From positions 27,379,095-27,443,094 of the forward strand of contig NC_079879.1 of NCBI RefSeq assembly GCF_029227915.1: 64,000 nt of DNA. The letters run 5' to 3'. The position numbers and the translations under genes were made by a program. The notes under the pieces are model-generated. The model was not told the DNA's origin. It saw nothing but the letters and a program-made list of their open reading frames with translations, and did no database searches. Of the stretch, positions 9,542-59,900 are shown one piece after another. The stretch's first letter is position 1, and each line of letters begins with the position of its first letter. This DNA comes from Hydractinia symbiolongicarpus. Lineage: Eukaryota.

Positions 9542-12500
9542 TTGAGGATGGCTAGTGTAAATGTTGGTACTCTGAGAGGTAGAGCAGGTGAAGTAGTTGA
9601 AATGTTAGAATGTAGATTTGTTGACATGTGTTGTGTTCAGGAAGTTAGGTGGAGAGGAGCTTCAGTGAGATTTATGGAAGGTAGGAAGGCAAGGTATAAG
9701 CTTTTTTGGATTGGTAATAGTGATGGATATGGAGGAGTTGGCATATTCGTTGCAGAGAAGTGGGTAGAAAAAGTAATAGATGTTATGCGTGTTAATAGTC
9801 GTATTATAGTGATAAAGTTTTTGATAGGTAATAGGATTGTCACTTTTTTGTCAGTTTATGCTCCACAGTGTGGACTCAGTGAGGAAGATAAAGATAAGTT
9901 TTATGATGAGTTAATAGCAGTCACATCAAAGTTTGGAGACACTGAACTTGTCATGGTGGGCGGCGACTTTAATGGTCATGTTGGGAAGTCATCTGAAGGT
10001 TATAGAGGTGTGCATGGAGGCTATGGATTTGGGAGCAGAAATAAGGAAGGGGAGAGATTGCTTGAGTTTGGAATGGCAACGGACATGGTGGTTTGCAACA
10101 CATCATTCAGTAAGAGACAGAGTAGGCTGATAACATATGAGTCAGGTGGTTGTAAGACACAGATAGATTACTTTTTGGTTAGAAAGTCAGACAAGAAAGT
10201 GGTGAAGGACGTGAAAGTTATATCGGGGGAAGAGTGTGTTTCCCAGCATAGGTTGCTGGTTTGTGATATTATCTTGAAGAGTGTCAGAGAAGCCAAGGGA
10301 AAGTAAAGGCCCCGTCGAAAAGTCTGGAAGCTGAAGGAAGAGATTGTAGCAAGACAATTTAGTGCAAAAGTTCAGCAGTTAGCCTACAATAGTCAATGTG
10401 ATAGTGACAATGTTGAAAGTACTTGGACTACTTTGAAGAATTGTCTTCTAGAAGCTTCTGATGATACCTGTGGGTGGACAAAAGGACCAGCTAGACATAG
10501 ACAGACCTGGTGGTGGAATAATGAGGTTGACCAGTGTATAAAGGAAAAGAGGAAACTTTGGAAAGAGTGGAAGTCAGGTGGTAGTAAAAATATTTACTTA
10601 GAAGCTAAGCGTCGAGCTCGTACAGCAGTGTGTAAGGCAAAATCAGAAGCAGAGAGAAACAGATTTGCAGATGTGTTAAGAAGGGAAGACCAGCGCAATG
10701 AGGTATTCAAGATAGCAAAGCAAATGAAGAAGACTAATCAAGATATTGTAGGTGAGAAGTGTATACGTAATGATGAAGGTGTTTTGGCTAGCACAGAGGA
10801 GGAGAAAAGGGTAGCTTGGAAGAATCATTATCAGAGGTTGCTTAACACTGAGTTTGATTGGGACGAGGGTAATTTGTCTGATGATGATGTCGTAGAAGGG
10901 CCAGCCATGCAGATCAAGACAGAATGGGTAGTGGAGGCTATTAGGAAAATGAAGATTGGCAAGGCTGCAGGAGTATCAGGTATTGTTGCAGAGATGGTAA
11001 AAGCATCTGGATATATTGGAGTTAAGCTTATTACAAGTCTTGCTAACCAGATTATAAGGGATGGTGCTATTCCGAGTGAGTGGCAGTCGAGTGTAATAGT
11101 GAATTGTTTCAAGGGCAAGGGTGATGCATTAGAAAGGGGTAACTATAGAGGTTTGAAGTTGGTTGATCAAGTAATGAAAGTTATTGAAAGAGTGATTGAT
11201 AAGTTACTTAGAGAAAGAATTGATATAGATAAGATGCAATTTGGTTTTGTTCCAGGGCGTGGCACTACAGATGCAATATTTTTACTCAGACAGCTTCAGG
11301 AAAAGTATTTAGGAAAGAAAAAGAATCTCTATTTTGCCTTTGTAGATTTAGAGAAGCTTTTGATAGAGTACCACGTAAAGTTATTTGGTGGGCTATGAGA
11401 AAAATAGGTGTGGATGAGTGGCTAGTTACGATGGTTCAGTCTATGTACAGCAATGCTAGAAGTCGTGTCAGGATTAACGATTCACTTATCACTTAGTGAT
11501 GAATTTAGTGTAAATGTTGGTGTACATCAGGGTTCTGTACTTAGTCCTTTGTTGTTTATTCTAGTCTTAGAAGCGCTGTCGATGAATTTCAGAACAGGTT
11601 GTCCATGGGAGTTATTGTATGCAGATGATTTGGTTCTCATAGCAGAGTCGATGGAAGAATTAGTTGAAAAGTTTGAGAAGTGGAAGAAAGGACTAGAAGA
11701 AAAAGGGCTGAAGGTAAACACAGCAAAGTCTAAAGTCATGATAAGTAGCATTGCAGCCAAGTGTGACCTTGTAGTTGGAAAGTGGCCTTGTGGAGTTTGC
11801 AGGAAAGGGGTTGGTAGTAACTCAATTTTTTGTCAGACTTGCAAGCATTGGGTACATAAGAAGTGCAGTAGTATTAGTGGAAGGTTAAGAGCTGGCATAC
11901 AGTTTGTATGCAAACGTTGCAAAGGTGAGATTATAGAGAATGAAGTATTTCCAGCTTTAATGATGTACAACAGTGGCTCGTTAGAGATAGTTAAGAACTT
12001 CTGTTACTTAGGTGATATGTTGGGCAGTGAAGGGGGTGTTGGAAGAAGTGTTACTTGCAGGATAGGTTCTGCTTGGAAAAAGTTTAGAGAGTTACTTCCT
12101 TTATTGACTAGCAGAGTCCTGTCAATTGAGGTAAAAGGTAGGTTGTATGAGGCCTGTGTAAGAAGTGTTATGTTGTACGGTAGTGAGACATGGGCAGTGA
12201 AGCAGGAAGATCTTGACCGTTTAGAAAGGAATGATATGAGAATGGTTAGGTGGATGTGTAATGCCAGTCTGAGAGACAGAAAGAGTTCAGATGAGCTAAG
12301 AAGCAGGCTAAGTCTCTGTAGAATTAAAGATGTTATCCAGATAAGAAGATTGAATTGGCTGGGGCACTTGGAAAGAATGGAGGAGGATAATTGGGTAAGA
12401 AAGTGTAGAGACTTGATAGTTCCTGGGGCAAAGCCCAGAGGCAGACCGAGAAAGACTTGGCAGGAGGTTATAAGGACAGACTTGATAGAGAGGAAGTTGA

Positions 12501-12589
12501 GTTTAGATCTAACACAGTCTAGATCAGATTGGAAGAGGGTCATTAATATACCCCGTCCAACCCATGCTAGCATGGAAAACGGACGTTAA
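9542..12589 (+). pseudogene. LINE APE-RT ORF, all three ORF-track pieces in the same frame; interrupted by one in-frame TAA (10304) and a compensating -1/+7 indel pair near 11310-11490
   Basis: 9542, 10433 and 11453 are all equal to 2 mod 3. Compared with the 37110 copy, there is a 1-bp deletion (gagaagcttttg vs gagaaagcttttg) and a 7-bp duplication (cacttatcacttagtga). Confidence 0.8.
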
Positions 12590-12595
12590 GCCGAG

Positions 12596-12626
12596 AATGA
12601 TGATGATGATGATGATGATGATATGT
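12596..12626 (+). repeat. (ATG)n microsatellite tail of the LINE
   Basis: aatgatgatgatgatgatgatgatgatatg immediately after the ORF stop. Confidence 0.9.
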
Positions 12627-13758
12627 GAGAGGTTTGGAAACCATTATGTTGAAAAAAATTATGAAGTTCATAACAGGCTCAGATAAAATGGTTGTTGATA
12701 CAGTAGAAAAAATTTTCATGCGACCAGAATTGAATTTTACTTGTAGACCAGTAACTCACACATGCACACCAAGCTTAGAACTTCCTTCAACTTATAATAA
12801 TTACTGCGAACTCAGTCAAGAATTCAGCAATATATTGCAGTCATCTGAATGGGAGATGGACATCATTTAAACTGATTTTGGATTCTTTCTATTTATTTAT
12901 TATTTATTTATTTAAAAATATTTATACAGGATGAGGACTTCAGTAATTTGCAAATTTGTACATAAATACAAAAAAACTGCTATCAATGTCCGTCCTGTCT
13001 GACAATAAAAATGGAAAAAAGCAGTAAAAACAGTAAAAACAGCAAAAACAATAAAAACAAACAAAAAATTGATCAACTAGAAATGCAACAGTATGCATAC
13101 AAGGTGTGAAGTGACTTCACATGGGAGCTAAATAAGACATAGGCATAGTTCAAAACATTATTCCCACTTAGCTAAACTTGAAGCAGACTGGACGGCACAG
13201 TGACTAAGATAGAAGCTGAGAGTGCACATCGCCCAATAGCTGGTATCGTCTATTAAGAGAGGTACCCTCTGAGCGCATTCATAAAAAAAGAGACATTTTA
13301 TCGATTTTTCGAATTTCAATTGGCAGTGAATTATACAGTTTACCCCCTGCAAAATAGAAACTCTGCCGGGCGATTTCTAGTTTAACACGAGGTAACCTGA
13401 CAATGCAGCCGTTATTTCGTGTGTCATTGTCATGGCTGACAAAATAATTGTCAAAATGTTCAGAGGTTAGTTCATTTAGTAGATTCTTGTTTTGTTGTTA
13501 TATTTGAACTGACAGACAATAGAGTTTCCAGTATTCTGTTTTGTTAACACTTTTTTTATACAATTTTGGAGAGGGATTTTAGGTGCAATAAAAAACTTTG
13601 TATCGATTTATTTTTATTGTGTTTTTTTATCAATTGTATGAATATCTAGGAAAATTGAAGAATGCCTAAAATTATGAAGGGGTCTGTTTCATACTTTGAT
13701 ATTAAACAGGTAATACTAAATTTGGATTAAAAAAAACATTTAAACAGTTAACTATGTT

Positions 13759-14870
13759 CTATGAATACTGTTCGATCTTTGATTGTAAGTACATGTAGAG
13801 ACGTAACGCATCTGAAACAACATTAGGAAAGTCCCATCCATTTTGTTGCATCAAAGTTTGTGTAAACTCCTTGAACTTGGGGGAAACATGTTCAACTGTG
13901 TTGTGGGTAACGCAGGGATAAAATTGTTCAATCCTATCAGCATCTACGTTTATTAGGCAATCAGTGGCATGATACAAATGTGGCAAGTAATACATTACAT
14001 CTGGTCTTCCACGAGGGCCAGAATTCCTACTCTTAGAAATAATGTGTGAATTCCACTCATCTTGAACAGTCTGCAACTCCTTGCAGATCAACGGCGTATG
14101 CGATCGACTAACACAGGATCCGAACTTGTAAAAACATTTAGGTTGGTCATATATCTGAAAAATGATTTCCACCAACCAATGCGATCACGCTGTAAGGTAG
14201 ACAAGTAGGACTCAATTTCTTTGATTTTCTGGGGAAGAGATAATACTAAAAAAGCCCAAGCTGTTTTGACTGTCAGTTGAACTATGTAAATAAACATGAA
14301 TTGGCTCAATCAAAGAATGTTTGGTACTGTCATCTCCCTTGATCTGACTTGGTATGCCTTCCAATTCCTTGATTGAGTCTAAATAAAATTTTGCTATGAT
14401 TTACAGGAGTTTATTGGAGGATCCCACTTCAAGCCAGTTTAATTTTCTCAAGAAGCCATCAATACAACCGTAGATCGAAACCCAAGAGGTTTCAATTTGT
14501 CATGACCGTCAATGTGCCATGCGTAATTGGGCCCTTCGCGAAACATATTTGCGTCTGTGAAGTCGTCGCTTTTTTCGAAGAAACACTCCTTCGGGGTTTA
14601 ACGATTTTATTATCAATCTTACGTCTTCGTGACGACAAATAATTGACCAGACAACACTGTTGCTCACATTCTACGATAACCTAAGATCGAACCACTACCA
14701 TACATCTCCTGCTGGATTGCTTGACCAAGTTCCTGATTTGAATTACGCTTTTCCTCTACAGCTCTACGTTTCAAGCCATGCTGTCTGAGTTTTCGTTTAA
14801 GATTCGATTAACTAATTTCAATCCTACGAACGTGTTTCAACAACCCAATTATTTCAGAATATGAAAAGCC
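13759..14870 (-). pseudogene. decayed copy of the HTH + rve integrase family found intact at 49668..51201 (multiple stops and frameshifts)
   Basis: Minus-strand translation gives ...GPNYAWHIDGHDKLKPLGF (compare [30 protein letters not shown]), QRDRIGWWKSF (compare NQRIERLWRDL) and SDPVLVDRIRRIPLICKELQTVQDEWNSH (compare LDPVNDVDLYALHSVFLPRINRACEKFVKQWNNH). Upstream, SLKRKLRQHGLKRR resembles the HTH segment. Confidence 0.5.
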
Positions 14871-15049
14871 TTTTACAAAATAGTCTCGGATGACATCCAT
14901 CCTTCCTCTTCAGCTCTTACTCAGATCATCTCTATTTGGCTTGATCAAGAATTTTCAAGTTTCAAGAACTGTAGATAGTTTCAAATATTTATGAAAAAAA
15001 TAAAATGTGTTATAAAAGTTCCAAAAACAATTTGAAGAAGTTTTTATAA

Positions 15050-46705: not shown

Positions 46706-47192
46706 TATTATTAAAGATATATACAGACCTTCAATAACAAATCGAACGTGCAATATGGTGGCTTCATATTTCTTCTTTGGTTTTTTACTTTCTTTATCTT
46801 TACTCGCTATTTTATTCGCAAGTTAAGTAGTACAAAATAATAAAGATATGTTCTTTACATTTTGTTTAAGGATACGGTAACACCCTGAGACACATACTCA
46901 GTATATTTAAAATATCCCCTCTGTGCGCTATATTAACCCTAGCAAATATATGTTCTGAAAGCCAAATAAATTATCTATAGAATGATGATCCAAAAAGTAG
47001 AAAAAATATTATATACAAAAATTCACCGTTCCAGTTCATTTTGTCTAACACTTCCCTCAGTAAAATTTTTGTTCGTCGAAAAAAATATCATTGCGAAGCT
47101 CTTATTCACCTTTAAAAAATTTTGCTTTTTTTACTCAAAACAACACGTGGTTCCAAAAATATAGCATATTTTGTGTCACAATAGCTGTTTTA

Positions 47193-47225
47193 TATGGCGC
47201 GCCTGAGGGGACAAAATTAAAAAAA
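47193..47225 (+). repeat. left terminal inverted repeat (33 bp)
   Basis: Exact reverse-complement match to 51456..51488. Confidence 0.9.
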
Positions 47226-47516
47226 TATTTTGTTATTTAAAAAAAGAATATTTTTGTAAAAAAACAGTTTTTTTGAAGAAAATACTTATTTTTTGAAATT
47301 TTTAAAAAATAATAATGAAAAAACAACAACGAATAAACAAAAAGATATAAAAACAATTTGATTTATTTTATTGTTCATTTTTTTGAAAAAAAATGAAAAA
47401 CAGTTGGAGAACATTTTTGTCCGACGGCCAGGCTCTATCAATCAATCATTTTTGTTCGACAGCGTAACCTGTTCTGCAAATTATTACTTTGTTCGCCCTC
47501 CTGTGGCACTCCTAAA

Positions 47517-47679
47517 ATGGCGCAGAAAGAAAACAACATGAGCTCTGCACTTGAAGGCCTCAGCAACCTTGTTCGTGCTTTGGAACAGCACAAAAAGAAG
47601 CCCGAGCAGAACAGCGAATCAAACAATGTTGAAGAAGCTGTACATTTACTCTTCCGTCCAAATAGACAAGAGAAAAATG
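47517..47679 (+). CDS. exon 1 of transposon-borne HECT-like gene (MAQKENNMSSALEGLSNLVRALEQHKKKPEQNSESNNVEEAVHLLFRPNRQEKN)
   Basis: ATG in good context (ctaaaATGG), donor G|gtaaaaag at 47680, phase 1. Confidence 0.5.
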
Positions 47680-47866
47680 GTAAAAAGCTACGTTATTTTG
47701 TTTCACAAACCACTTTCAGTTTTTTGGTTTTGTGACTTATATAGCTAGTAGCAATCTAGCTAAAAACCAAGTTGCAATGACTACAATATATATTTTTCCC
47801 GAAAGAGCTGGTATGGGTAACAGCTATTTTTGTGACCTTTGTAATGTCATTTTTGAATTATTTTAG

Positions 47867-48745
47867 AACACGCAGATCGGAACACTCTCAGCAGACGATT
47901 ACCATCTTCCACCAAGAGACCTTTTACTAATACCAATAGTAATACTTCTAAGCGAAGGAAATCTGCAACATTCATGAAAGATCTTGTGTTAATTCCTTCA
48001 CCAAAGATTAAAGTTATACCGAAAGGTGAATTGAAGGAACATTTACAATCATCAGGATTTATTGTTAATGCCTTCGAAGTTTTACTTGAAGCTCAGGAGG
48101 AGGAAATCAGAGAAACGATTTTTGAAAAGTTCCAAGATAAACTTCCAAGCAAGAATCAATTTTCATTTATGAAACCTGTACATAAAAAATTAATGAATCC
48201 TTCAGGCATAAATAACATAAATGGAAAAGTTTTAAAGCATTTGTCTTCTCCTGGTATAAACGGGTGCATATATATCAGGTCTTTAATTGACATAACTAAA
48301 AGTTATTTTAGTGCATTCATCAATTGCTATGAAGAAGAAGAAAAGGTTAAATCTGACAGTGACGATGGATTATTAGAAACGCCAGCATTTGGATTAATTA
48401 AAGATGTAAATAACTATACTTCAACAGGCCAAATTGAGTCATCATCTCAAAGTTCATCAAAGGATCTTGTGCTTGAACAATCAGAAAAAAAACTTGGCTG
48501 CAGTACAGAATTTGTGATGAAGAATTTGGTTGATATTCGTACAATTCATGCGGCAACAGGGAACAAACAAAAAATTTCAATCAACAGGTCAGATACATAT
48601 TTAAAAACCACTTTAATTCAACATAAACGTGGTCAAATTGACATATCTTACTTCCCAGAAGTAACCTTCGAAAATGGAGAAGAAGGCATGGATGCAGATG
48701 GTCCAAAAAGGGAATATTTTTACATATTACTTGATCGATTGATAC
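47867..48745 (+). CDS. exon 2 of HECT-like gene; ends with the HECT N-lobe start motif ...ISYFPEVTFENGEEGMDADGPKREYFYILLDRLI (3' junction uncertain: candidate donors at 48746, 48761, 48763; ORF runs to stop at 48795)
   Basis: Acceptor ttattttag| at 47866 restores frame with exon 1 (G+AA = Glu). GEEGMDADGPKREYFYILL matches the HECT consensus GEEGIDAGGLTREFFTLL. Confidence 0.5.
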
Positions 48746-48901
48746 GTGGAGAAGGAATATGTGTCATCATTCTACTTTACATTTTTACTTTCTAGAAAAT
48801 TTTTCCAATTTTTTATAGGACTATAATTTGTATTTTTAATATTGTTTGCAAGTTGATGTATTTCTTATGGGTGTAAAATTTGCAGCTTCTTTTTATTTTA
48901 G

Positions 48902-49122
48902 CTATCACAACAAAAGACCTATTAGTATTTCGTTGCTCTTCGCCAGTTCCTTTAGAAAATGGCGTTACTCTAAAGTTCAACAGGAGAGGTAAACCATTGC
49001 CTGATGCAGATACGTGTCTTTCGATACTTTCGATTCCAATTTGTCATGATGCATATAACGATTTCAAAAAGGCAATTGATGCTACCTTACGATTACAAGG
49101 ACAGGGTTTTGGACGTTTGTGA
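48902..49122 (+). CDS. last exon of HECT-like gene: HECT C-lobe end with catalytic Cys (...FRCSSPVPLENGVTLKFNRRGKPLPDADTCLSILSIPICHDAYNDFKKAIDATLRLQGQGFGRL*)
   Basis: Matches HECT C-terminal consensus ...VTGSSRVPLxGF...LPxAHTCFNxLxLPxYxSxExLxxxLxxAIxxxxGFGxx. The Cys lies ~35 residues from the C-terminus. Candidate acceptors are cag| at 48885 and ttttag| at 48901. Stop at 49120-49122. Confidence 0.55.
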
Positions 49123-49667
49123 GTTTTTAATATATATATACATGGTTTTTTTTCTTTTTGCCGTCCTAAAACGTCCAAAGTTATACAAACCTGGAAGTTT
49201 AAAAAGATTATTATATAAGATTATTATATATTATATAAAAAGATTGTTATATTATATGTTGACATTATTTTTTATTTTGCATTTCTGCAGTTTTTCTTTA
49301 CTTTTCGTTATATAAAAAGGAGACTTATTGACTTAACTAATTTTCATAATGCTAATAACAATAAAAGGCCTGAAAGTTTTTTACGTTAGTGAAAAATATA
49401 TGTGTAGGATACTATGTTTTGTTAGTGATTACTAAAGTTTTTGTTATTTAATACGAGTAAATGTGAACTTCTGATTAAAGTATTTCTTTGATACACTAAA
49501 ATACATTTTTGTCTCTGTTAAAAATTAACAACTTTTTAACTTTACATACTCCTACTATCAAGTGCCAAATAAACGCCAACCCACCAACCGAATTAATTTT
49601 TTGACCCTTATGTTTCATCGCGAGAGCTTAAAATCGTTTGTTTGTTATTCGACCGTACATCAGCTTA

Positions 49668-50439
49668 TCATAGCGCATGTACCAATAATTCACGAGTTTG
49701 AATGTACAAGTTTATTCCGTGATTGTGGTCTTCAGAAAGCGGGTCAATATTTTGCATAAAATTGTCTGGTAAATTCAGAGCTATCTCAGGAACATTTACG
49801 TTGTTGATCGAATCTATTAAAGGAGCTGGACCGTCAAGTTCGACTCCATGTGTACCAATGTTTTCATTTTCCTCCATTATCTGTCTCAAACCGTTATCAG
49901 AAGAATGCCAGTTCATATACATGCCTTGAGTCCACAGCTGATACGGCGTTCTATTGCCTTCAGTTGATAAAGGATGATTATTCCACTGCTTCACAAATTT
50001 CTCGCAAGCACGATTAATTCTAGGCAAAAACACGCTATGCAATGCGTACAAATCTACATCATTTACGGGGTCTAACATTTCTTGCTGCTCCATGAAATAA
50101 AAAATGCCTTTAAAATAATCAACCACCTGTATGACTAAGTCGCGCCAAAGCCTTTCGATTCTTTGATTATGCACTGATAGTCCAGTTATGACAGGCTTAC
50201 TGGCCACACCAAAGTGTCCCAGCATCCATCGTGCCACTTCAATATTTTCTGTACCGTGGTCAGTGCGAATTCTCCTAGGGACATTGTATTTATTGATGGC
50301 TTCCAGAAATAGATCTAATACGGTAGTGCTTCTGTTATTTGAATTACATCTGAGAAATGTTACTAATCTTGAATAACCATCTATACATCCGTGAAACACA
50401 ATGCGCCATCTAATTAACTTATGATGACCATCCATATGC
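49668..50439 (-). CDS. integrase exon 2: rve (retroviral-type integrase) catalytic core, D-D-E intact (HMDGHHKL ... IRTDHGTEN ... NQRIERLW)
   Basis: A 73-bp GT-AG intron (plus 50440..50512; minus gtaagtaag...attcttttag) joins ...SLW to HMDGHHKL in frame. D1-D2 spacing is 56 aa and D2-E spacing is 35 aa, typical of rve domains. Stop at 49668-49670. Confidence 0.7.
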
Positions 50440-50512
50440 CTAAAAGAATATTTTAAGAAATGGATATGGGCATAACGCAAACACCGTTTGTTAATTAGGG
50501 AAACTTACTTAC

Positions 50513-51201
50513 CACAGCGAATTTGGAGATTTCACATTGTACCTCCTTCTTTGTATACAATTCCTTCGTCTCATCACCCTGCTCAACGCGTCTACCCTCA
50601 TGATTGATTGTCGCAATCTTTCTCTTTTCACCTTAATATGTTTGCTGGTAATTGCACCTATTACCATTCTTTCGCCGCAATTTGGGAGTATCAAAAGCAC
50701 TTCTCGAACTATTTCATCGAGTTGTTGATCAGTTATGTCTGAATATTCTGCTTCTCCAAAAGGTAAATCAAATTCTTTACGACGACGACGGAGTGTTTTG
50801 ATACTAATACCAAGCATTTGAGCAATGTCCTTCCATTGATATCCGATCTTTTTCAAGCTAATGACTTGTTCCTTTGGCACTTCATACTTTGGTCTGCCAA
50901 CCTCACCAGTCACAGCTCTAGGACTAATGTAAGCATTGCTTTTATCACCACCTCGACAACGATGTTTCACTAGTTCTTCATAAAAATTTTGTAGTGACCT
51001 AATAACTTTTGGTATACGATCACTTATATCAGGCACTTGTAAGTACTCTAAGTATATTGATGCTAAATTCCATATAATTTCGTCAAACTGAATGTTGTAA
51101 ATTTCCTGCCCGATTTCATTCAAGGGCAAAAACCTGTTTCTTTCTAAACCATTTAGAAACGTAATTGCAGCTGTAACATGTGGAACATATACCGCCATCA
51201 T
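50513..51201 (-). CDS. integrase exon 1: N-terminal region with helix-turn-helix (ISLKKIGYQWKDIAQMLGISIKTLRRRRKEF) up to ...RRRYNVKSPNSLW
   Basis: ATG ATG at plus 51201/51198 on the minus strand. The exon ends ...ctgtg|gtaagtaag (phase 2), which splits the Trp codon. Confidence 0.65.
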
Positions 51202-51455
51202 TGTTTTTCTAACATCTTCATTTTTGCGCAAAATTTTAAATAAAATGCCGAACAGTCATACTTGTCGAAATTTTGATTGATTGATTGACAGGTGCCACAA
51301 AAAAAGAAAAAAACATTTTTTGAAAAAAGTAATAATTTTTTTCAACTAAAAAGAAAAAAAATTGCGAAAAAAAATTTTTTTTCGTATTTTTTAATATATT
51401 TTAATATCAAAAATGTTTTTTTCTTGGAAAAAAGTTTTTTTGTTTATTTTTTGGG

Positions 51456-51488
51456 TTTTTTTAATTTTGTCCCCTCAGGCGCGCCATA
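51456..51488 (-). repeat. right terminal inverted repeat (33 bp)
   Basis: Exact reverse-complement match to 47193..47225. Confidence 0.9.
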
Positions 51489-53187
51489 GTTTTATGACAG
51501 ATTTATCATTTTATGCATGATAGATCAATAACTCGATATTTCCTCACTTTCTGCGTTAAAAAAAGCAAAGCTTTGTAGCCAAAGATATAATTGTCGCAAC
51601 AAACTTGTTTTCGTACAATTTCGACAAGATGGAGGGGAGTGTTCGACAAAAATATATACCGTTACGACTGAAAATTTTATTTCGAGAAAAAGCAAATCAA
51701 AGATCTTTGCTTTTACCTGCAAGAATCATAGTTACACACACTTAAACGTGAATATTTTATTTCAAATTAAAGGCAAAGTATTTTCGCAGAACTTTGGGTC
51801 TAGTTATTGTTAAACAGACAACACGATAACATAACATAACAGAATAAAAACGAAAAAAATAAAGAAATAAATTAAAAAGGTATAGATGATAAATAACAAT
51901 ATATTTGTATAGATTATTAAAGTGTTAATGTTTCCTATGTTATATGTAGGGATGCAATTTTTTATTCGTTCTGCATAACTCTTTTTAATTATTATACAGA
52001 TTAAATATATTTAAGGAATTTTAAACTTTGAGCACACTTTTGAAAACACTAAAAAATAAAGAAGATTTTTCTTCATTTTATCACTCTTAACAATAAATAT
52101 TTTTGATTCTTTTTTAAAAAATATCAGGAAATTATACCAAAGAATCAAAATTAAAAAAAATATTTTTTTTAAAAAAATGACCCTGAAGGGGGTTACCGTA
52201 TCCTTAATACTTTTGCCATTTTGATCTTTAACTTTTTTTATTAAATCATATGTACATTGACCCCATGACAATAACAATAAAAATTGTTTTTTAATTTAGC
52301 CACCCGTTTGACAAACGAGTAAAAGTACTCAATTATAAATAATTCAGCACTCACAAAAATGTAAACAATATGATGTGTGGTTTATAGTTATAGTTTATAG
52401 AGCAGGCGAGAAAGGCAATCAGTCTGGTCCTTAAAATCAACGCTTATCATAAACTTTTATTCAGCAGCCGTGCAGCAGCGCAGTTCGCCTCTTCTTTAAA
52501 ATATAGAATAGCCTACGTGATTATGGCGGCGAACTTCGAACTTCAAAATGAGCTGTCTTGTTTCAATATATTTTGTCCATTAAACTTAAGCTTTCTTTAA
52601 GGATATCAAAATGTAGTTTCTCGCATACGAAAGTTTAGACGTAAGGCTCGAATTCAAGTCAACCAATAGCAAACCAATTTTGCGAAAAAAAACATAATTC
52701 AAATAAATTAATTAGCACAACGCTTAACTTCAACACTAAATCCGCGAAAATAAATTCTCTTATTTCCCACGAAATCCCAGAGAGAAAAAAACCCGGAAAG
52801 CCCAGGGGTTCAGCGGAAGCAATATTATTCCATACAAAAAGCAAGGAAATTGAGAATTTAAAACAAACGAACTTATTAAGGAGAGCTTAATTCTCTCAAA
52901 ATGTTTTAAAACTATTGAAAACAAAAATAATAATAAGAAAAAGATATTGGGTATGTGGTTGAACGAAAGTTGTAAGAAATACAGGACCAATAGGATTTGG
53001 AAATCAAACAAATACTCTTCGCATAGCGCCGGAAATAGCATAAACGTTTGTATTAATATATTAATATTTGTAAAGGATTCTTCTAGCAACAAGACCATGG
53101 TAAAAAGAAAGATAAAAAATGATTTAAGATAAATTCTCACAAGGTCGAAATTCGTAAATTAATTCTACAAAGATTCAGAAATCTGTT

Positions 53188-54138
53188 TCATGTCAAAGGC
53201 TTGTCTGCATATCCCAAGTATGTTTTTTTTGCAAAAAAATACATTTTTGGTATAGGACGATAAACTATGGACGCCGTCAATCCTTTAAAACCGAAACTTC
53301 CAATGACTTTATCAGTATTTCGCGTGACATTACAATTCGATCGCAAAGCTGCCCACGTATCATTCATTGTTTCTTGTGCATACCTCGTCCAGGTTCCACG
53401 CTCTGCAGCAATATGTTCTTTGAAGTAGAATCGACCTCCTGGCTTCAAAACTCTCATGATTTCATTTAAAGCTTTGGTTTGGTCTTGAACACAACAAAGC
53501 AAGAGCGAGCTTACTACACAACTGCATGAGTTATCAGCAATTAATCCACTCATATCTTCAACATTTCCAATCAAATATTTCTCCAACGTAACATGCTTAT
53601 TTTTCTCTAAACTTTCGTTTAAATAGGACTTGAAATTCTCATTCAAGTCAATTGTCATTAACCTAACACCTTTAGGGTAGTGTTCCAAGTTAGCGCAACT
53701 ACCAGCTCCAAGTTCCAGCACTGGTCCTCCTCCTACCTGTTCAATCACTTCCTCCATGCTACTGAATAACTCCTGATTCATTTTCTGGATGTCTTTTTGT
53801 TGGGCTTTATTCTTAGCCAAGCGACTGGTATCCCATGCTAAAAACTTTTTAAGTAGGCTTTTCGCTATTGACTGCACAAAAGCTAGCTTGAACAGGAAAT
53901 AAATTGTAAGAGCGAGGATAAAAAACCAGATTAGAAGCGAATAAACAAGTGACATGATGCTTCTAAATGTGAAGAAAAGAAAAATTAACATGTGTAATCG
54001 TTTAGCATGAATGATGAAAACATATAAAAGTGCCATGCCGACTGTTCGCCATGCGATAGGCCAGGTTTCAAAAATAATTAGCTGAGTTACAAAAATAATT
54101 GAGGTTAATCCTGAATCAATAGTAGAAACTGGCTTCAT
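53188..54138 (-). CDS. intronless 316-aa membrane-anchored SAM-dependent methyltransferase, METTL7/TMT1 (thiol methyltransferase)-like
   Basis: N-terminal hydrophobic helices. Motif I VLELGAGSCANLEHYP, then ...CVVSSLLLCCVQDQTKALNEIMRVLKPGGRFYFKEHIAAERGTW, closely paralleling METTL7B VLEVGCGTGANFQFYP...[43 protein letters not shown]. Confidence 0.8.
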   Translation of the reverse strand: MKPVSTIDSGLTSIIFVTQLIIFETWPIAWRTVGMALLYVFIIHAKRLHMLIFLFFTFRSIMSLVYSLLIWFFILALTIYFLFKLAFVQSIAKSLLKKFLAWDTSRLAKNKAQQKDIQKMNQELFSSMEEVIEQVGGGPVLELGAGSCANLEHYPKGVRLMTIDLNENFKSYLNESLEKNKHVTLEKYLIGNVEDMSGLIADNSCSCVVSSLLLCCVQDQTKALNEIMRVLKPGGRFYFKEHIAAERGTWTRYAQETMNDTWAALRSNCNVTRNTDKVIGSFGFKGLTASIVYRPIPKMYFFAKKTYLGYADKPLT

Positions 54139-55410: not shown

Positions 55411-56914
55411 AAAGTAAACAAATAACGTCACAATGGCATCTATCCATCTATATTTTCTTAAATACTGATGTTGTATGAGTGTTTTGAAATTAGGTTGTTT
55501 TGGATTGGGAGGAAACTTTATATTAAAACATTTTTCTTTGTTCCTTATGGTTTGTTCTGTTGTTGTTGTTTTGTTTTTAGCTTTGTCCAGTTCCACCTTC
55601 CCCTGACTGTTAACTAGACATTTGACAATATTTGGAATACTAATATTTTTCCTGACACATTGGACACCGCACCCTACATGACATTCATTTTTTACAAATA
55701 AATAAAACAACTACAGCAGCAAATAAAAACAATCTTACCAAAAACGTTTTTCCACGTGTATACTGTGTTCCAACCGGTGTGTGGTAGAATATTCTGCCCC
55801 CCTAGAATATTCTGCCCCCCCCGTAGTTGTGACTAATTACTTTAAGTATCAAATATTTGTCCGGCTATTGCGTTAAAGATGGCGGAGTTCGCTGTGCTGA
55901 CTGTACACAAAGCTATTATAGGGATATAGGTTAGTGAAAATGTATATATTACAGCCACATATTTGTTCACATTTAGCTTAGTGACAATGTATTACAATAC
56001 ATATTATATTTGTTGACTTACAGCCCCCTTGATTGTGTTTTATATACTCCATATTCATATTAAAACAAAATTCTTTCAGAACATATTAGCTAGCTATAAT
56101 TGACTAAAATACGAACTTTTTCGTTGCATATTACTACATCATCAAGTAAAATGAATTACTAAAACTGTATTACGATTATATACATTAAAAATTACAAACA
56201 TGTCCCGAAAGACGTAAAACTAATAGATGAATTCTGTTGTTTACGTTTTTAGCAGTAGCTAAGCTCTTTCGAAACTTGACACTTGTGAATCATGCCAAAG
56301 AAACATTGGGGCTACTGTCTCATTTCTGAGCAGCTTAAGATTTACTATATATACATCCAAACAAGTCAGTTCTAGTGTCTGCCCAATGCATAGTTTTTAG
56401 TGTTTGTGTTAAACTCTGCTCAGATGACAATAGCCTTAATCAATGAAAGGGTCAAAAAAAAGGAGTCTAATGTAAGGACTTGTTGTGCATGCCTCACCCC
56501 AGGTTTGTTTGAAGAATTATCGGAACATTAATTTCTGTCTTCAATGCCATGAAGTATGGCAAGTCACATTATATAAGTCTTTGGAAAGAGATAACAACCT
56601 AGGACTTAAGGTAGGCCATGGAGAGTTTTGATTTTTTCTGTCAGAATTTTCTATTAAGGATGTACAATGGTGGCTCAAAGTGGCTCAGTTTACCAGACCT
56701 ATACATTTGCCTAAAATTAATCTAATTTTATCCTTCGATGTTATGTATGTTCTTCAGGGTTAGGTGGTACTGGTAGAAACTTTTAAATAGGTGGACGTTG
56801 GTCTGAGGGAGAATTGCCACAGAGCATATCAATACACTTCAGAGTTGTTGGTTGCATTTTTTGCACTCAATATCTTCTTAAAAATCATTCAATATAGACA
56901 TTTTCAATTAAGAT

Positions 56915-59900
56915 TCGAAAAAATCAGGTATGGATGCCTGAATTATTCTGTACCCCCTACAGTTCTGGGCGTACAAATATCTGGCAACGCCATGGGGGGT
57001 ACAGAAAAAATCACGTATGGATGCCTGAATTATTCTGTACCCCCCTACAGTTCTGGGCGTACAAATATCTGGGTACGCCATGGGGGGTACAGAAAAAATC
57101 AGGTATGGATGCCTGAATTATTCTGTACCCCCCTGCAGTTCTAGGCGTACAGTATCCGGCAACGCCATAGGGGGTACAGAAAAAATCAGGTATGAATGCC
57201 TGAATTATTCTGTACCCCCCTACAGTTCTGGGCGTGCAAATATCTGGCTACGCCATAGGGGGTACAGAAAACGTCAGTTATTAATGCCTGAATTATTCTG
57301 TACCCCCCAACAGTTCTAGGCGTACAATATCTGGCAACGCGATAGGGGGTACAGAAAAAATCAGGTATGAATGCCTGAATTATTCTGAACCCCCTACAGT
57401 TCTGGGCGTACAAATATCTGGGTACGCCATGGGGGGTACAGAAAAAATCAGGTATGGATGCCTGAATTATTCTGTACCCCCCTACAGTTCTAGACGTACA
57501 ATATCAGGCAACGCCATAGGGGGTACAGAAAAAATCAGGTATTAATGCCTGAATTATTCTGTACCCCCCCACAGTTCTAGGCGTACAATATCTGGCAACG
57601 CCATAGGGGGTACAGAAAAAATCAGGTATGTATGCCTGAATTATTCTGTACCCCCTACAGTTCTGGGCGTGTCAATCTCTGGCAACGCCATAGGGGGTAC
57701 AGAAAAAATCAGGTATGAATGCCTGAATTATTCTGTACCCCCTACAGTTCTGGGCGTACAAATATCTGGGTACGCCATGGGGGGTACAGAAAAAATCAGG
57801 TATGGATGCCTGAATTATTCTGTACCCCCTACAGTTCTGGGCGTGCAAATATCTGGCAACGCCATAGGGGGTACAGAAAAAATCAGGTATGAATGCCTGA
57901 TTTATTCTGTACCCCCTACAGTTCTGGGCGTGCAAATATCTGGCAACGCCATAGGGGGTACAGAAAAAATCAGGTATGTATGCCTGAATTATTCTGTACC
58001 CCCTACAGTTCTGGGCGTGCAAATATCTGGCAACGCCATAGAGGGTACAGAAAAAATCAGGTATTAATGCCTGAATTATTCTGTACCTCCCCTACAGTTC
58101 TAGGCGTACACTATCCGGCAACGCCATAGGGGGTACAGAAAAAATCCGGTATGAATGCCTGAATTATTCTGTACCCTACAGTTCTGGGCGTGCAAATATC
58201 TGGCAACGCCATAGGGGTACAGAAAAAATCAGGTATGGATGCCTGAATTATTCTGTACCCCCCTACAGTTCTGGGCGTACAAATATCTGGGTACGCCATG
58301 GGGGGTACAGAAAAAATCAGGTATGGATGCCTGAATTATTCTGTACCCCCTACAGTTCTGGGCGTACAAATATCTGGCAACGCCATGGGGGGTACAGAAA
58401 AAATCACGTATGGATGCCTGAATTATTCTGTACCCCCCTACAGTTCTGGGCGTACAAATATCTGGGTACGCCATGGGGGGTACAGAAAAAATCAGGTATG
58501 GATGCCTGAATTATTCTGTACCCCCCTGCAGTTCTAGGCGTACAGTATCCGGCAACGCCATAGGGGGTACAGAAAAAATCAGGTATGAATGCCTGAATTA
58601 TTCTGTACCCCCCTACAGTTCTGGGCGTGCAAATATCTGGCTACGCCATAGGGGGTACAGAAAACGTCAGTTATTAATGCCTGAATTATTCTGTACCCCC
58701 CAACAGTTCTAGGCGTACAATATCTGGCTACGCCATAGGGGGTACAGAAAACGTCAGGTATTAATGCCTGAATTATTCTGTACCCCCCTGCAGTTCTGGG
58801 CGTACAAATATCTGGTAACGCCATAGGGGGTACAGAAGGCGTCAGGTATTAATGTCTGAATTATTCTGTACCCCCCTGCAGTTCTAGGCGTACACTATCC
58901 GGCAACGCCATAGGGGGTACAGAAAAAATCACGTATGAATGCCTGAATTATTCTGTACCCCCTACAGTTCCGGGCGTGTAAATCTCTGGCAACGCCATAG
59001 GGGGTACAGAAAAAATCAGGTATGGATGCCTGAATTATTCTGTACCCCCCTACAGTTCTGGGCGTACAAATATCTGTGTACGCCATGGGGGGTACAGAAA
59101 AAATCAGGTATGGATGCCTGAATTATTCTGTACCCCCCTGCAGTTCTAGGCGTACACTATCCGGCAACGCCATAGGGGGTACAGAAAAAATCAGGTATGA
59201 ATGCCTGAATTATTCTGTACCCCCTACAGTTCTGGACGTGCAAATATCTGGCAACGCGATAGGGGTTACAGAAAAAATCAGGTATTAATGCTTGAATTAT
59301 TCTGTACCCCCCAACAGTTCTAGGCGTACAATATCTGGCAACGCGATAAAGGGTACAGAAAAAATCAGGTATGAATGCCTGAATTATTCTGTACCCCCTA
59401 CAGTTCTGGGCGTGCAAATATCTGGCAACGCCATAGTGGGTACAGAAAAAATCAGGTATGTATGCCTGAATTATTCTGTACCCCCTACAGTTCTGGGCGT
59501 GCAAATATCTGGCAACGCCATAGGGGTACAGAAAAAATCAGGTATGGATGCCTGAATTATTCTGTACCCCCCTACAGTTCTGGGCGTACAAATATCTGGG
59601 TACGCCATGGGGGGTACAGAAAAAATCAGGTATGGATGCCTGAATTATTCTGTACCCCCTACAGTTCTGGGCGTACAAATATCTGGCAACGCCATGGGGG
59701 GTACAGAAAAAATCACGTATGGATGCCTGAATTATTCTGTACCCCCCTACAGTTCTGGGCGTACAAATATCTGGGTACGCCATGGGGGGTACAGAAAAAA
59801 TCAGGTATGGATGCCTGAATTATTCTGTACCCCCCTGCAGTTCTAGGCGTACAGTATCCGGCAACGCCATAGGGGGTACAGAAAAAATCAGGTATGAATG

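Follow-up and report, generated by a model that had tools for sequence, protein, structure and literature searches.

In the 64,000-nucleotide stretch of Hydractinia symbiolongicarpus DNA analysed here (contig NC_079879.1 of RefSeq assembly GCF_029227915.1, positions 27,379,095 to 27,443,094; hereafter the window, whose own numbering is used throughout), positions 47193-51488 very probably constitute a single, complete cut-and-paste DNA transposon insertion that belongs to the IS3EU/GingerRoot superfamily and carries a spliced transposase gene. IS3EU and GingerRoot are regarded here as one group. With a length of 4296 bp and the termini TATGG...CCATA, the element is a well-preserved but ordinary representative of a known superfamily, the exon structure of its transposase gene being already present in RefSeq. 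Its boundaries are given by two terminal inverted repeats (TIRs) and a 6-bp target-site duplication (TSD), listed here together with a palindrome inside the right end:

47187-47192, no strand: left TSD, GTTTTA, the same hexamer abutting both TIRs
47193-47225, plus strand: left TIR, 33 nt, TATGGCGCGCCTGAGGGGACAAAATTAAAAAAA, 100% complementary to 51456-51488; its TATGG fits the IS3EU consensus TAYGG
51295-51454, no strand: subterminal imperfect palindrome, A/T-rich, with 84-nt arms that are 70% complementary (blastn self-match)
51456-51488, minus strand: right TIR, 33 nt, ending ...GGCGCGCCATA, the perfect complement of the left TIR
51489-51494, no strand: right TSD, GTTTTA, directly outside the right TIR

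An earlier model-generated reading of the letters alone (the sequence-only reading) had described the TIRs as perfect, and 33 of 33 nucleotides indeed pair between the two ends. These are the only two copies of the TIR in the window (chance expectation 0, 100 shuffles), and no similarity between the ends is found beyond the 33 nt. According to our own calculation, a hexamer at one given position would match by chance with a probability of ~4e-4 for the local base composition, and the empty site is predicted to read ...CACAATAGCTGTTTTATGACAGATTT... The left subterminal region contains no counterpart of the palindrome at 51295-51454, which, conjecturally, may serve as a promoter or a transposase-binding region. 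A scan for sigma-70 promoters and terminators, not relevant to a eukaryote, gave no enrichment.

A separate pair of repeats is observed around the insertion: a 21-nt inverted repeat, TTAAGGATACGGTAAC(A/C)CCCT, is present at 46866-46886 and 52187-52207, 327 bp to the left and 699 bp to the right of the element. No similarity extends past the 21 nt and the window holds no other copies. Possibly, the IS3EU copy was inserted into a ~1-kb host element resembling a miniature inverted-repeat transposable element (MITE).

The transposase gene lies on the minus strand and is composed of the following parts:

50513-51201, minus strand: exon 1, encoding an N-terminal helical region and a helix-turn-helix (HTH; residues 110-144) and ending ...KSPNSLW(TG); family profile E=1.2e-67
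50512-50440, minus strand: intron, 73 bp, phase 2, GTAAGT...polypyrimidine...TTTTAG
49668-50439, minus strand: exon 2, encoding the D233, D290, E325 core and the C-terminal domain; family profile E=2.6e-131

The two open reading frame (ORF) pieces that the sequence-only reading had joined into one gene are both present, at 50509-51231 and 49668-50480. Exon 1 starts with the ATG at 51201 and reaches its 3' end, ...AATTCGCTGTG, at 50513; since it is 689 nt long, the intron is in phase 2 and splits the codon of Trp230, TG/G, after the second base. The intron reads GTAAGTAAGT...ATTCTTTTAG, exon 2 opens with GCATATGGATGG at 50439, and the TGA stop occupies 49670-49668. The spliced coding sequence of 1461 nt comprises 486 codons plus the TGA with no internal stop, so the premature stop after splicing, which the sequence-only reading had named as grounds for rejecting its own model, does not occur. 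The 486-aa product is byte-identical to the RefSeq protein XP_057307868.1 (LOC130645787, H. symbiolongicarpus), which means that the same intron had already been chosen in the NCBI annotation; a lookup of the exact product (P0001, P0121) in the contig index returned no record.

The position of the splice junction is well defined by its surroundings. Among the 19 GT..AG pairs that leave an open frame in this region, only the pair 50512/50440 has the consensus GTAAGT donor, and only this pair keeps both W and H of the conserved ...PNSLWHxDG... motif. The splice context, TG/GTAAGT ... TTCTTTTAG/G (slashes marking the exon borders), is that of a GT-AG intron. Furthermore, the Pfam 'integrase core' family rva_4 aligns without a break across residue 230 (residues 221-408, E=9.6e-83), and all 18 aligned homologues (36-44% identity) are continuous through ...PNSLWHxDGxHKL... 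The identical RefSeq model, the single rva_4 alignment and the read-through homologues uphold the joining of the two pieces, and rebuilding the coordinates recovers the proposed 73-bp phase-2 GT-AG intron within a Trp codon. Splicing of this intron is thus a strong inference from sequence.

Just upstream of the gene, a short ORF is observed at 51221-51198 (minus strand), ATGAAGATGTTAGAAAAACAATGA, encoding MKMLEKQ; its stop codon shares bases with the ATG of the transposase (ATGA overlap). Should the transcript begin upstream, this ORF could play a part in the control of translation.

At the protein level, the catalytic residues are D233 (HMDGHH), D290 (RTDHGTEN) and E325 (NQRIERLW). A total of 3133 homologues were found, and the three residues are invariant across an alignment of 18 of them, drawn from teleosts, sturgeon, corals, sea anemone, sponge, hemichordate, nemertean, beetles and the fungus Rhizophagus. 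This conservation agrees with the earlier statement that the DDE triad is intact. The Pfam family rve is matched as well (E=2e-9). The spacing had been given as D-56-D-35-E: 56 residues do intervene between the two aspartates, while between D290 and E325 there are 34, the value of 35 being a positional offset. The proposed N-terminal HTH is likewise recovered, as the segment KIGYQWKDIAQMLGISIKTLRRRRKEF (residues 118-144) is matched by Pfam HTH_23 and HTH_8 below threshold and the region is modelled by AlphaFold as three helices (110-119, 123-130 and 134-144).

The AlphaFold model, built on the alignment, has a mean predicted local distance difference test score (pLDDT) of 73.8, with values of 80-94 over residues 230-400. 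The predicted core topology, β1(230-235)-β2-β3-α1-β4(287-289)-α2-β5-α(319-348), indicates that the catalytic core is, in the model, an RNase H-like fold with the three acidic residues at the expected places. The best solved structures found by Foldseek are the intasome integrases of Rous sarcoma virus (RSV), mouse mammary tumour virus (MMTV) and simian T-lymphotropic virus (STLV), the catalytic core of human T-lymphotropic virus 2 (HTLV-2) integrase, and the bacterial transposases IstA, TnsB and MuA; a profile search against PDB sequences agrees weakly with these matches. At E<=0.1, Pfam detects neither an HHCC zinc finger nor any other N- or C-terminal integrase domain. Among prokaryotic profiles (NCBIfam) the best are IS481 (E=2.5e-16) and IS3 (E=1.9e-9), both well below their family cutoffs. 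The label 'integrase' used in the sequence-only reading must accordingly be replaced: the protein is an IS3EU/GingerRoot DNA-transposon transposase and not a retroelement integrase.

The IS3EU superfamily reportedly goes back, in Repbase, to Kapitonov, Bao and Jurka in 2012. Its members have TA..TA termini, a TSD usually of 6 bp and no HHCC domain (PMC10045372), and those of fungi have TAYGG..CCRTA termini with TIRs of more than 30 bp (PMC12730594); GingerRoot likewise shows a 6-bp TSD and TA..TA ends, and its relatives occur in fish, coral and sea anemone (PMC6839031, Cerbin et al. 2019). The Hydractinia element shares these features in its 6-bp TSD GTTTTA, its TATGG...CCATA termini, which fit TAYGG..CCRTA, and its 33-nt TIR. 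Its DDE transposase, likewise of the integrase/IS3/IS481 type, has an HTH at the N-terminus and lacks HHCC, YPYY and GPY motifs. The best prokaryotic affinities, IS481 and IS3, are those published for the group, and the host range, which includes cnidarians and fish, is also common to both; the homologue set covers fish, corals, sea anemone and fungi, the taxa reported for GingerRoot/IS3EU (PMC6839031). A second gene opposite to the transposase is also found in fungal IS3EU, where, in contrast to the HECT-like partner described below, it encodes an alpha-kinase, sometimes accompanied by a TET/JBP gene (PMC12730594). The Hydractinia element further differs from the described group in having a lineage-specific intron of 73 bp shortly upstream of the codon for the first catalytic Asp.

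Two elements on one contig of assembly GCA_949826985.1 allow the termini to be compared directly. The first, L003-A, is 7.6 kb long with 245-nt TIRs, the termini TATGGGGCGCC...CCCCATA (TATGG..CCATA) and the TSD GTTATG; the second, L003-B, is 5.8 kb long with the termini TACGG...CCGTA and the TSD AGGATT. Their transposases are 46% identical to that of Hydractinia or more distant, L003-A being the one at ~46%. Since the terminal 11 nt of the Hydractinia element and L003-A are nearly identical although their transposases are only ~46% identical, conservation of the end-recognition sequence is suggested.

Other systems resemble the element in part. In H. symbiolongicarpus, IS3EU accounts for 4.19% of the genome, and most of this is an old derivative located at the centromeres (PMC11934779). 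This repeat, HSymIS3EUlR, is centromere-enriched and shares the genome and the superfamily label with the element, but it is old (Kimura divergence 20.6%), contains internal 182-bp tandem repeats and occurs in 1,384 copies (PMC11934779); compared with that description, the element studied here belongs to a young, low-copy, coding-competent family. The matches to IS481 and IS3 cover the HTH and the first two catalytic Asp residues, but their scores reach 60 against a cutoff of 224 bits (IS481) and 37 against 160 bits (IS3). Unlike these insertion sequences, the Hydractinia gene is eukaryotic and interrupted by an intron, and the termini are TA..TA rather than TG..CA; the TSD of IS3 is also different, being 3-5 bp instead of 6 bp. 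The integrases of retroviruses and long terminal repeat (LTR) elements (RSV, MMTV, STLV, HTLV-2) have in common with the transposase the RNase H-like core fold and the DDE arrangement, whereas the HHCC domain, an SH3-like C-terminal match, LTRs and reverse transcriptase (RT) are all absent here, and the element moves as DNA.

Between the left TIR and the transposase stop lies a second gene (gene 2), convergent with the transposase. In a word-indexed homology search its product returned a single cluster, P0126, from a Logan contig of SRR18218884 (L001) and 99% identical, and that cluster has no NCBI-sourced members. The three-exon structure is our own prediction (425 aa, plus strand) and comprises, with one damaged region:

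47517-47679, plus strand: exon 1 (own model), ATG, then a GTAAAA donor; joined to exon 2 through a GAA codon
47867-48760, plus strand: exon 2 (own model), ending ...DGPKREYFYILLDRLIRGEG, where the HECT domain starts; identity to P0126 99% over 261 aa
48758-48944, plus strand: breakpoint region, in which 187 bp replace ~655 bp of HECT N-lobe coding sequence of L001 (blastn)
48902-49122, plus strand: exon 3 (own model), the HECT C-lobe end ...LLVFRCSSPVPLENG...LPDADTCLSILSIP...GFGRL and stop, with the putative catalytic Cys

Neither the long ORF nor, even at E<=10, the three-exon model gives a direct Pfam match, and a match to PF00632 over both lobes is not obtained. An exhaustive phmmer search with P0126 yielded 658 relatives, and because eight of the ten long relatives tested match Pfam HECT (PF00632) above threshold in the aligned region, gene 2 is, by transitive homology, a divergent HECT-type (ubiquitin-ligase-like) gene. 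Against a profile of the gene-2 relatives (591 positions), exon 2 matches positions 65-317 (E=8.6e-40) and exon 3 positions 524-588 (E=6.6e-8); exon 3 is also matched by residues 469-538 of the HECT relative P0128 (tblastn). As in HECT E3 ligases, the motif ...DGPKREYF... and a C-terminal ...TC...L.IP... with the putative catalytic Cys are kept. The catalytic Cys of HECT ligases lies ~35 residues from the C-terminus; here LPDADTCLSILSIP lies 39 residues from it, aligned to the C-lobe ends of HECT relatives through a custom profile only. Gene 2 differs from these ligases in having no direct Pfam match, in its location inside a transposon and in the absence of ~205 N-lobe profile positions.

The damage can be delimited from both sides. 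The window copy lacks P0128 residues ~257-468, corresponding to profile positions ~318-523 (~205-212 N-lobe residues), and the 187 bases found in their place are unrelated to the L001 sequence. L001 has a lesion of its own, a 23-bp deletion and frameshift before the C-lobe that leaves the C-lobe out of frame, and the C-termini of P0126 and of the window product are non-homologous. Since the window (48758-48982) and L001 carry different lesions and no NCBI model exists, the accessory HECT-like gene may be decaying in the Hydractinia family while the transposase stays intact.

A convergent transposase and HECT-like pair inside TIRs is also present in four other elements from three other organisms. 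Both GCA_949826985.1 elements have a HECT-like partner, one with a precomputed PF00632 match and the other detected by tblastn with P0126 (33% identity, E=3e-18). In the octocoral Dendronephthya the HECT-like partner matches the profile at E=3.5e-13, and in the sturgeon Acipenser ruthenus the partner has a precomputed HECT match and long TIRs surround both genes. No HECT-like partner was seen beside the Nematostella or Ptychodera copies. Papers linking IS3EU/GingerRoot or TIR transposons to HECT were not found in a search that lay outside Repbase Reports, and IS3EU is absent from the text of a preprint on medusozoan transposable elements; the pairing is possibly undescribed. We tentatively consider, as a reading that is plausible but falls short of probable, that the HECT-like gene has been conserved since ancient times as a functional module in an animal lineage of IS3EU and is not a chance passenger.

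What appears to be a decayed second IS3EU-like element of a different lineage, with the pairing present once more, is also found in the window, at 12625-14897. It consists of a transposase pseudogene at 13780-14897 (minus strand), which matches the L003-B transposase in tblastn at E=8e-31 and is disrupted by several stops and frame breaks, and a convergent HECT C-lobe ORF at 12625-12870 (plus strand; ...FITGS...THTC...LELPSTY..., profile E=1.9e-7); no TIRs were found for it. Directly upstream of the C-lobe ORF, a 378-aa ORF at 11453-12589 (plus strand) shows RT motifs, ...LSPLLFILVLEAL...YADDLVLIAES... Judged from these motifs by eye, it is probably a fragment of a non-LTR retrotransposon that interrupted the older element.

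A weaker reading than that of the HECT module concerns the intron. Its position is three codons ahead of the first catalytic Asp, and a stop follows immediately when it is retained; intron retention could therefore yield a 230-aa HTH-only protein that regulates transposition, by analogy with the P-element repressor.

Regarding copy number, the 90% protein cluster of the transposase comprises six different RefSeq proteins, encoded at seven or more loci that are spread over several chromosome-scale records. The cluster proteins are 98-100% identical to the window transposase, and two loci encode an identical protein. A recent amplification of the element family is suggested by these at least seven near-identical loci, and also by the perfect TIRs, undamaged TSD and uninterrupted reading frame of the window copy. 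Recent activity, as claimed in the sequence-only reading, is therefore plausible, and the family may still be mobile.

The following course of events would account for these observations. The transposase gene (minus strand, 51201-49668) would be transcribed and its 73-bp spliceosomal intron removed, giving a 486-aa product with an N-terminal HTH DNA-binding region and a retroviral-integrase-like RNase H-fold core. If the protein works like characterised DDE transposases and integrases, binding of the TATGGCGCGCC... ends would fall to the HTH region, and the DDE site would excise the element and join its 3' ends to the target with a 6-bp stagger, whose repair would produce the GTTTTA duplication. 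In this lineage the convergent HECT-type gene would accompany the transposase as a conserved partner, its N-lobe having been lost in the window copy.

Several points weigh against reading the interval as a complete IS3EU/GingerRoot insertion with a spliced transposase gene. The TIR of Selaginella GingerRoot is 100-150 bp long, compared to 33 nt here; the superfamily placement follows structural hallmarks and Pfam matches rather than a phylogeny; and splicing is deduced from consensus signals, homology and the NCBI model. Gene 2 is, moreover, internally deleted in the window copy, and if it were needed for transposition this copy would not be autonomous; because of that deletion, autonomy of the window copy is not claimed. 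A different account of the 73 bp, which we regard as very unlikely, is that they are a disabling insertion with a coincidental GT-AG, leaving a pseudogene or a 230-aa HTH fragment only. It would fit the unspliced frame, which reads TGG and then TAA at once, and also the homologues: many are intronless (for example P0006 in L003-L005), and that of Nematostella has no intron at this position, its own introns lying elsewhere and GPNSLWHLDGNHKLIR falling within one exon. The same comparison indicates that the intron is not ancient in the family but lineage-specific. On the other hand, the donor TG/GTAAGT is perfect and the acceptor TTTTAG/G pyrimidine-rich, removal of the 73 bp restores PNSLWHxDG with no residue gained or lost, and no stop codon occurs elsewhere in the 486-codon ORF. 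Furthermore, the same junction is used by at least five paralogous RefSeq models of identical length, and the 73 bp must therefore already have been in the copy that amplified.

Assignment to another class of element (Ginger2/TDD, Ginger1, Polinton/Maverick or a solo LTR-retrotransposon fragment) appears extremely unlikely. The catalytic core does resemble retroviral integrases, and the first Repbase match of GingerRoot was Ginger2-1_HM (PMC6839031). However, Ginger and LTR elements have TG..CA and Polintons AG..TC termini (PMC6839031), compared to TA..TA here, and the TSD is 4 bp in Ginger1 and 4-5 bp in Ginger2 (PMC10045372), compared to 6 bp. Both Ginger groups were thus rejected on termini, TSD length and the HHCC domain, Ginger1 being characterised by HHCC, YPYY and GPY motifs, and no other integrase N- or C-terminal Pfam match is found. 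The presence of TIRs in place of LTRs speaks against an LTR-retrotransposon fragment. Polintons/Mavericks are 15-20 kb long and carry genes for a protein-primed DNA polymerase, capsid, protease and ATPase, whereas the present element has 4.3 kb and two genes only, with no polymerase, capsid, protease or RT; this candidate failed on size and gene content, the 6-bp TSD being all that is shared. The chance that the transposase gene is a domesticated, host-co-opted integrase-derived gene is next to negligible: its ORF is intact and RefSeq lists it as an ordinary 'uncharacterized protein', but perfect TIRs and a 6-bp TSD flank it, it is one of at least seven near-identical copies on several chromosome-scale records, and the termini are conserved with elements of another organism.

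Two further features were observed elsewhere in the window. A 316-aa single-exon ORF at 53188-54138 (minus strand) contains motifs of class I S-adenosylmethionine (SAM)-dependent methyltransferases (...VLELGAGSCANLEHYP...VLKPGGRFYF...) and probably represents the host gene closest to the insertion on its downstream side. At ~56790-59820, long ORFs on both strands with repeated peptide units (...IRYGCLNYSVPPTVLGVQISGNA...) indicate a tandem or satellite-like DNA repeat array.

For annotation, these results mean that LOC130645787 and its at least six paralogues, listed as 'uncharacterized protein' in RefSeq, encode the transposase of a young IS3EU/GingerRoot transposon, and that this family should be masked or labelled as transposon in Hydractinia, a model of stem cells and regeneration. 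The complete copy, with an intact 486-aa transposase, defined 33-nt ends and a known empty site, provides a practical starting point for activity tests and tools. If the HECT-like gene is indeed a module of the lineage, a transposon-borne ubiquitin-ligase-like protein would presumably act during transposition on a protein of the host or the transposon, modifying or destroying it, and if this partner is both functional and undescribed, it would add a new case of a DNA transposon that encodes a host-manipulating enzyme.

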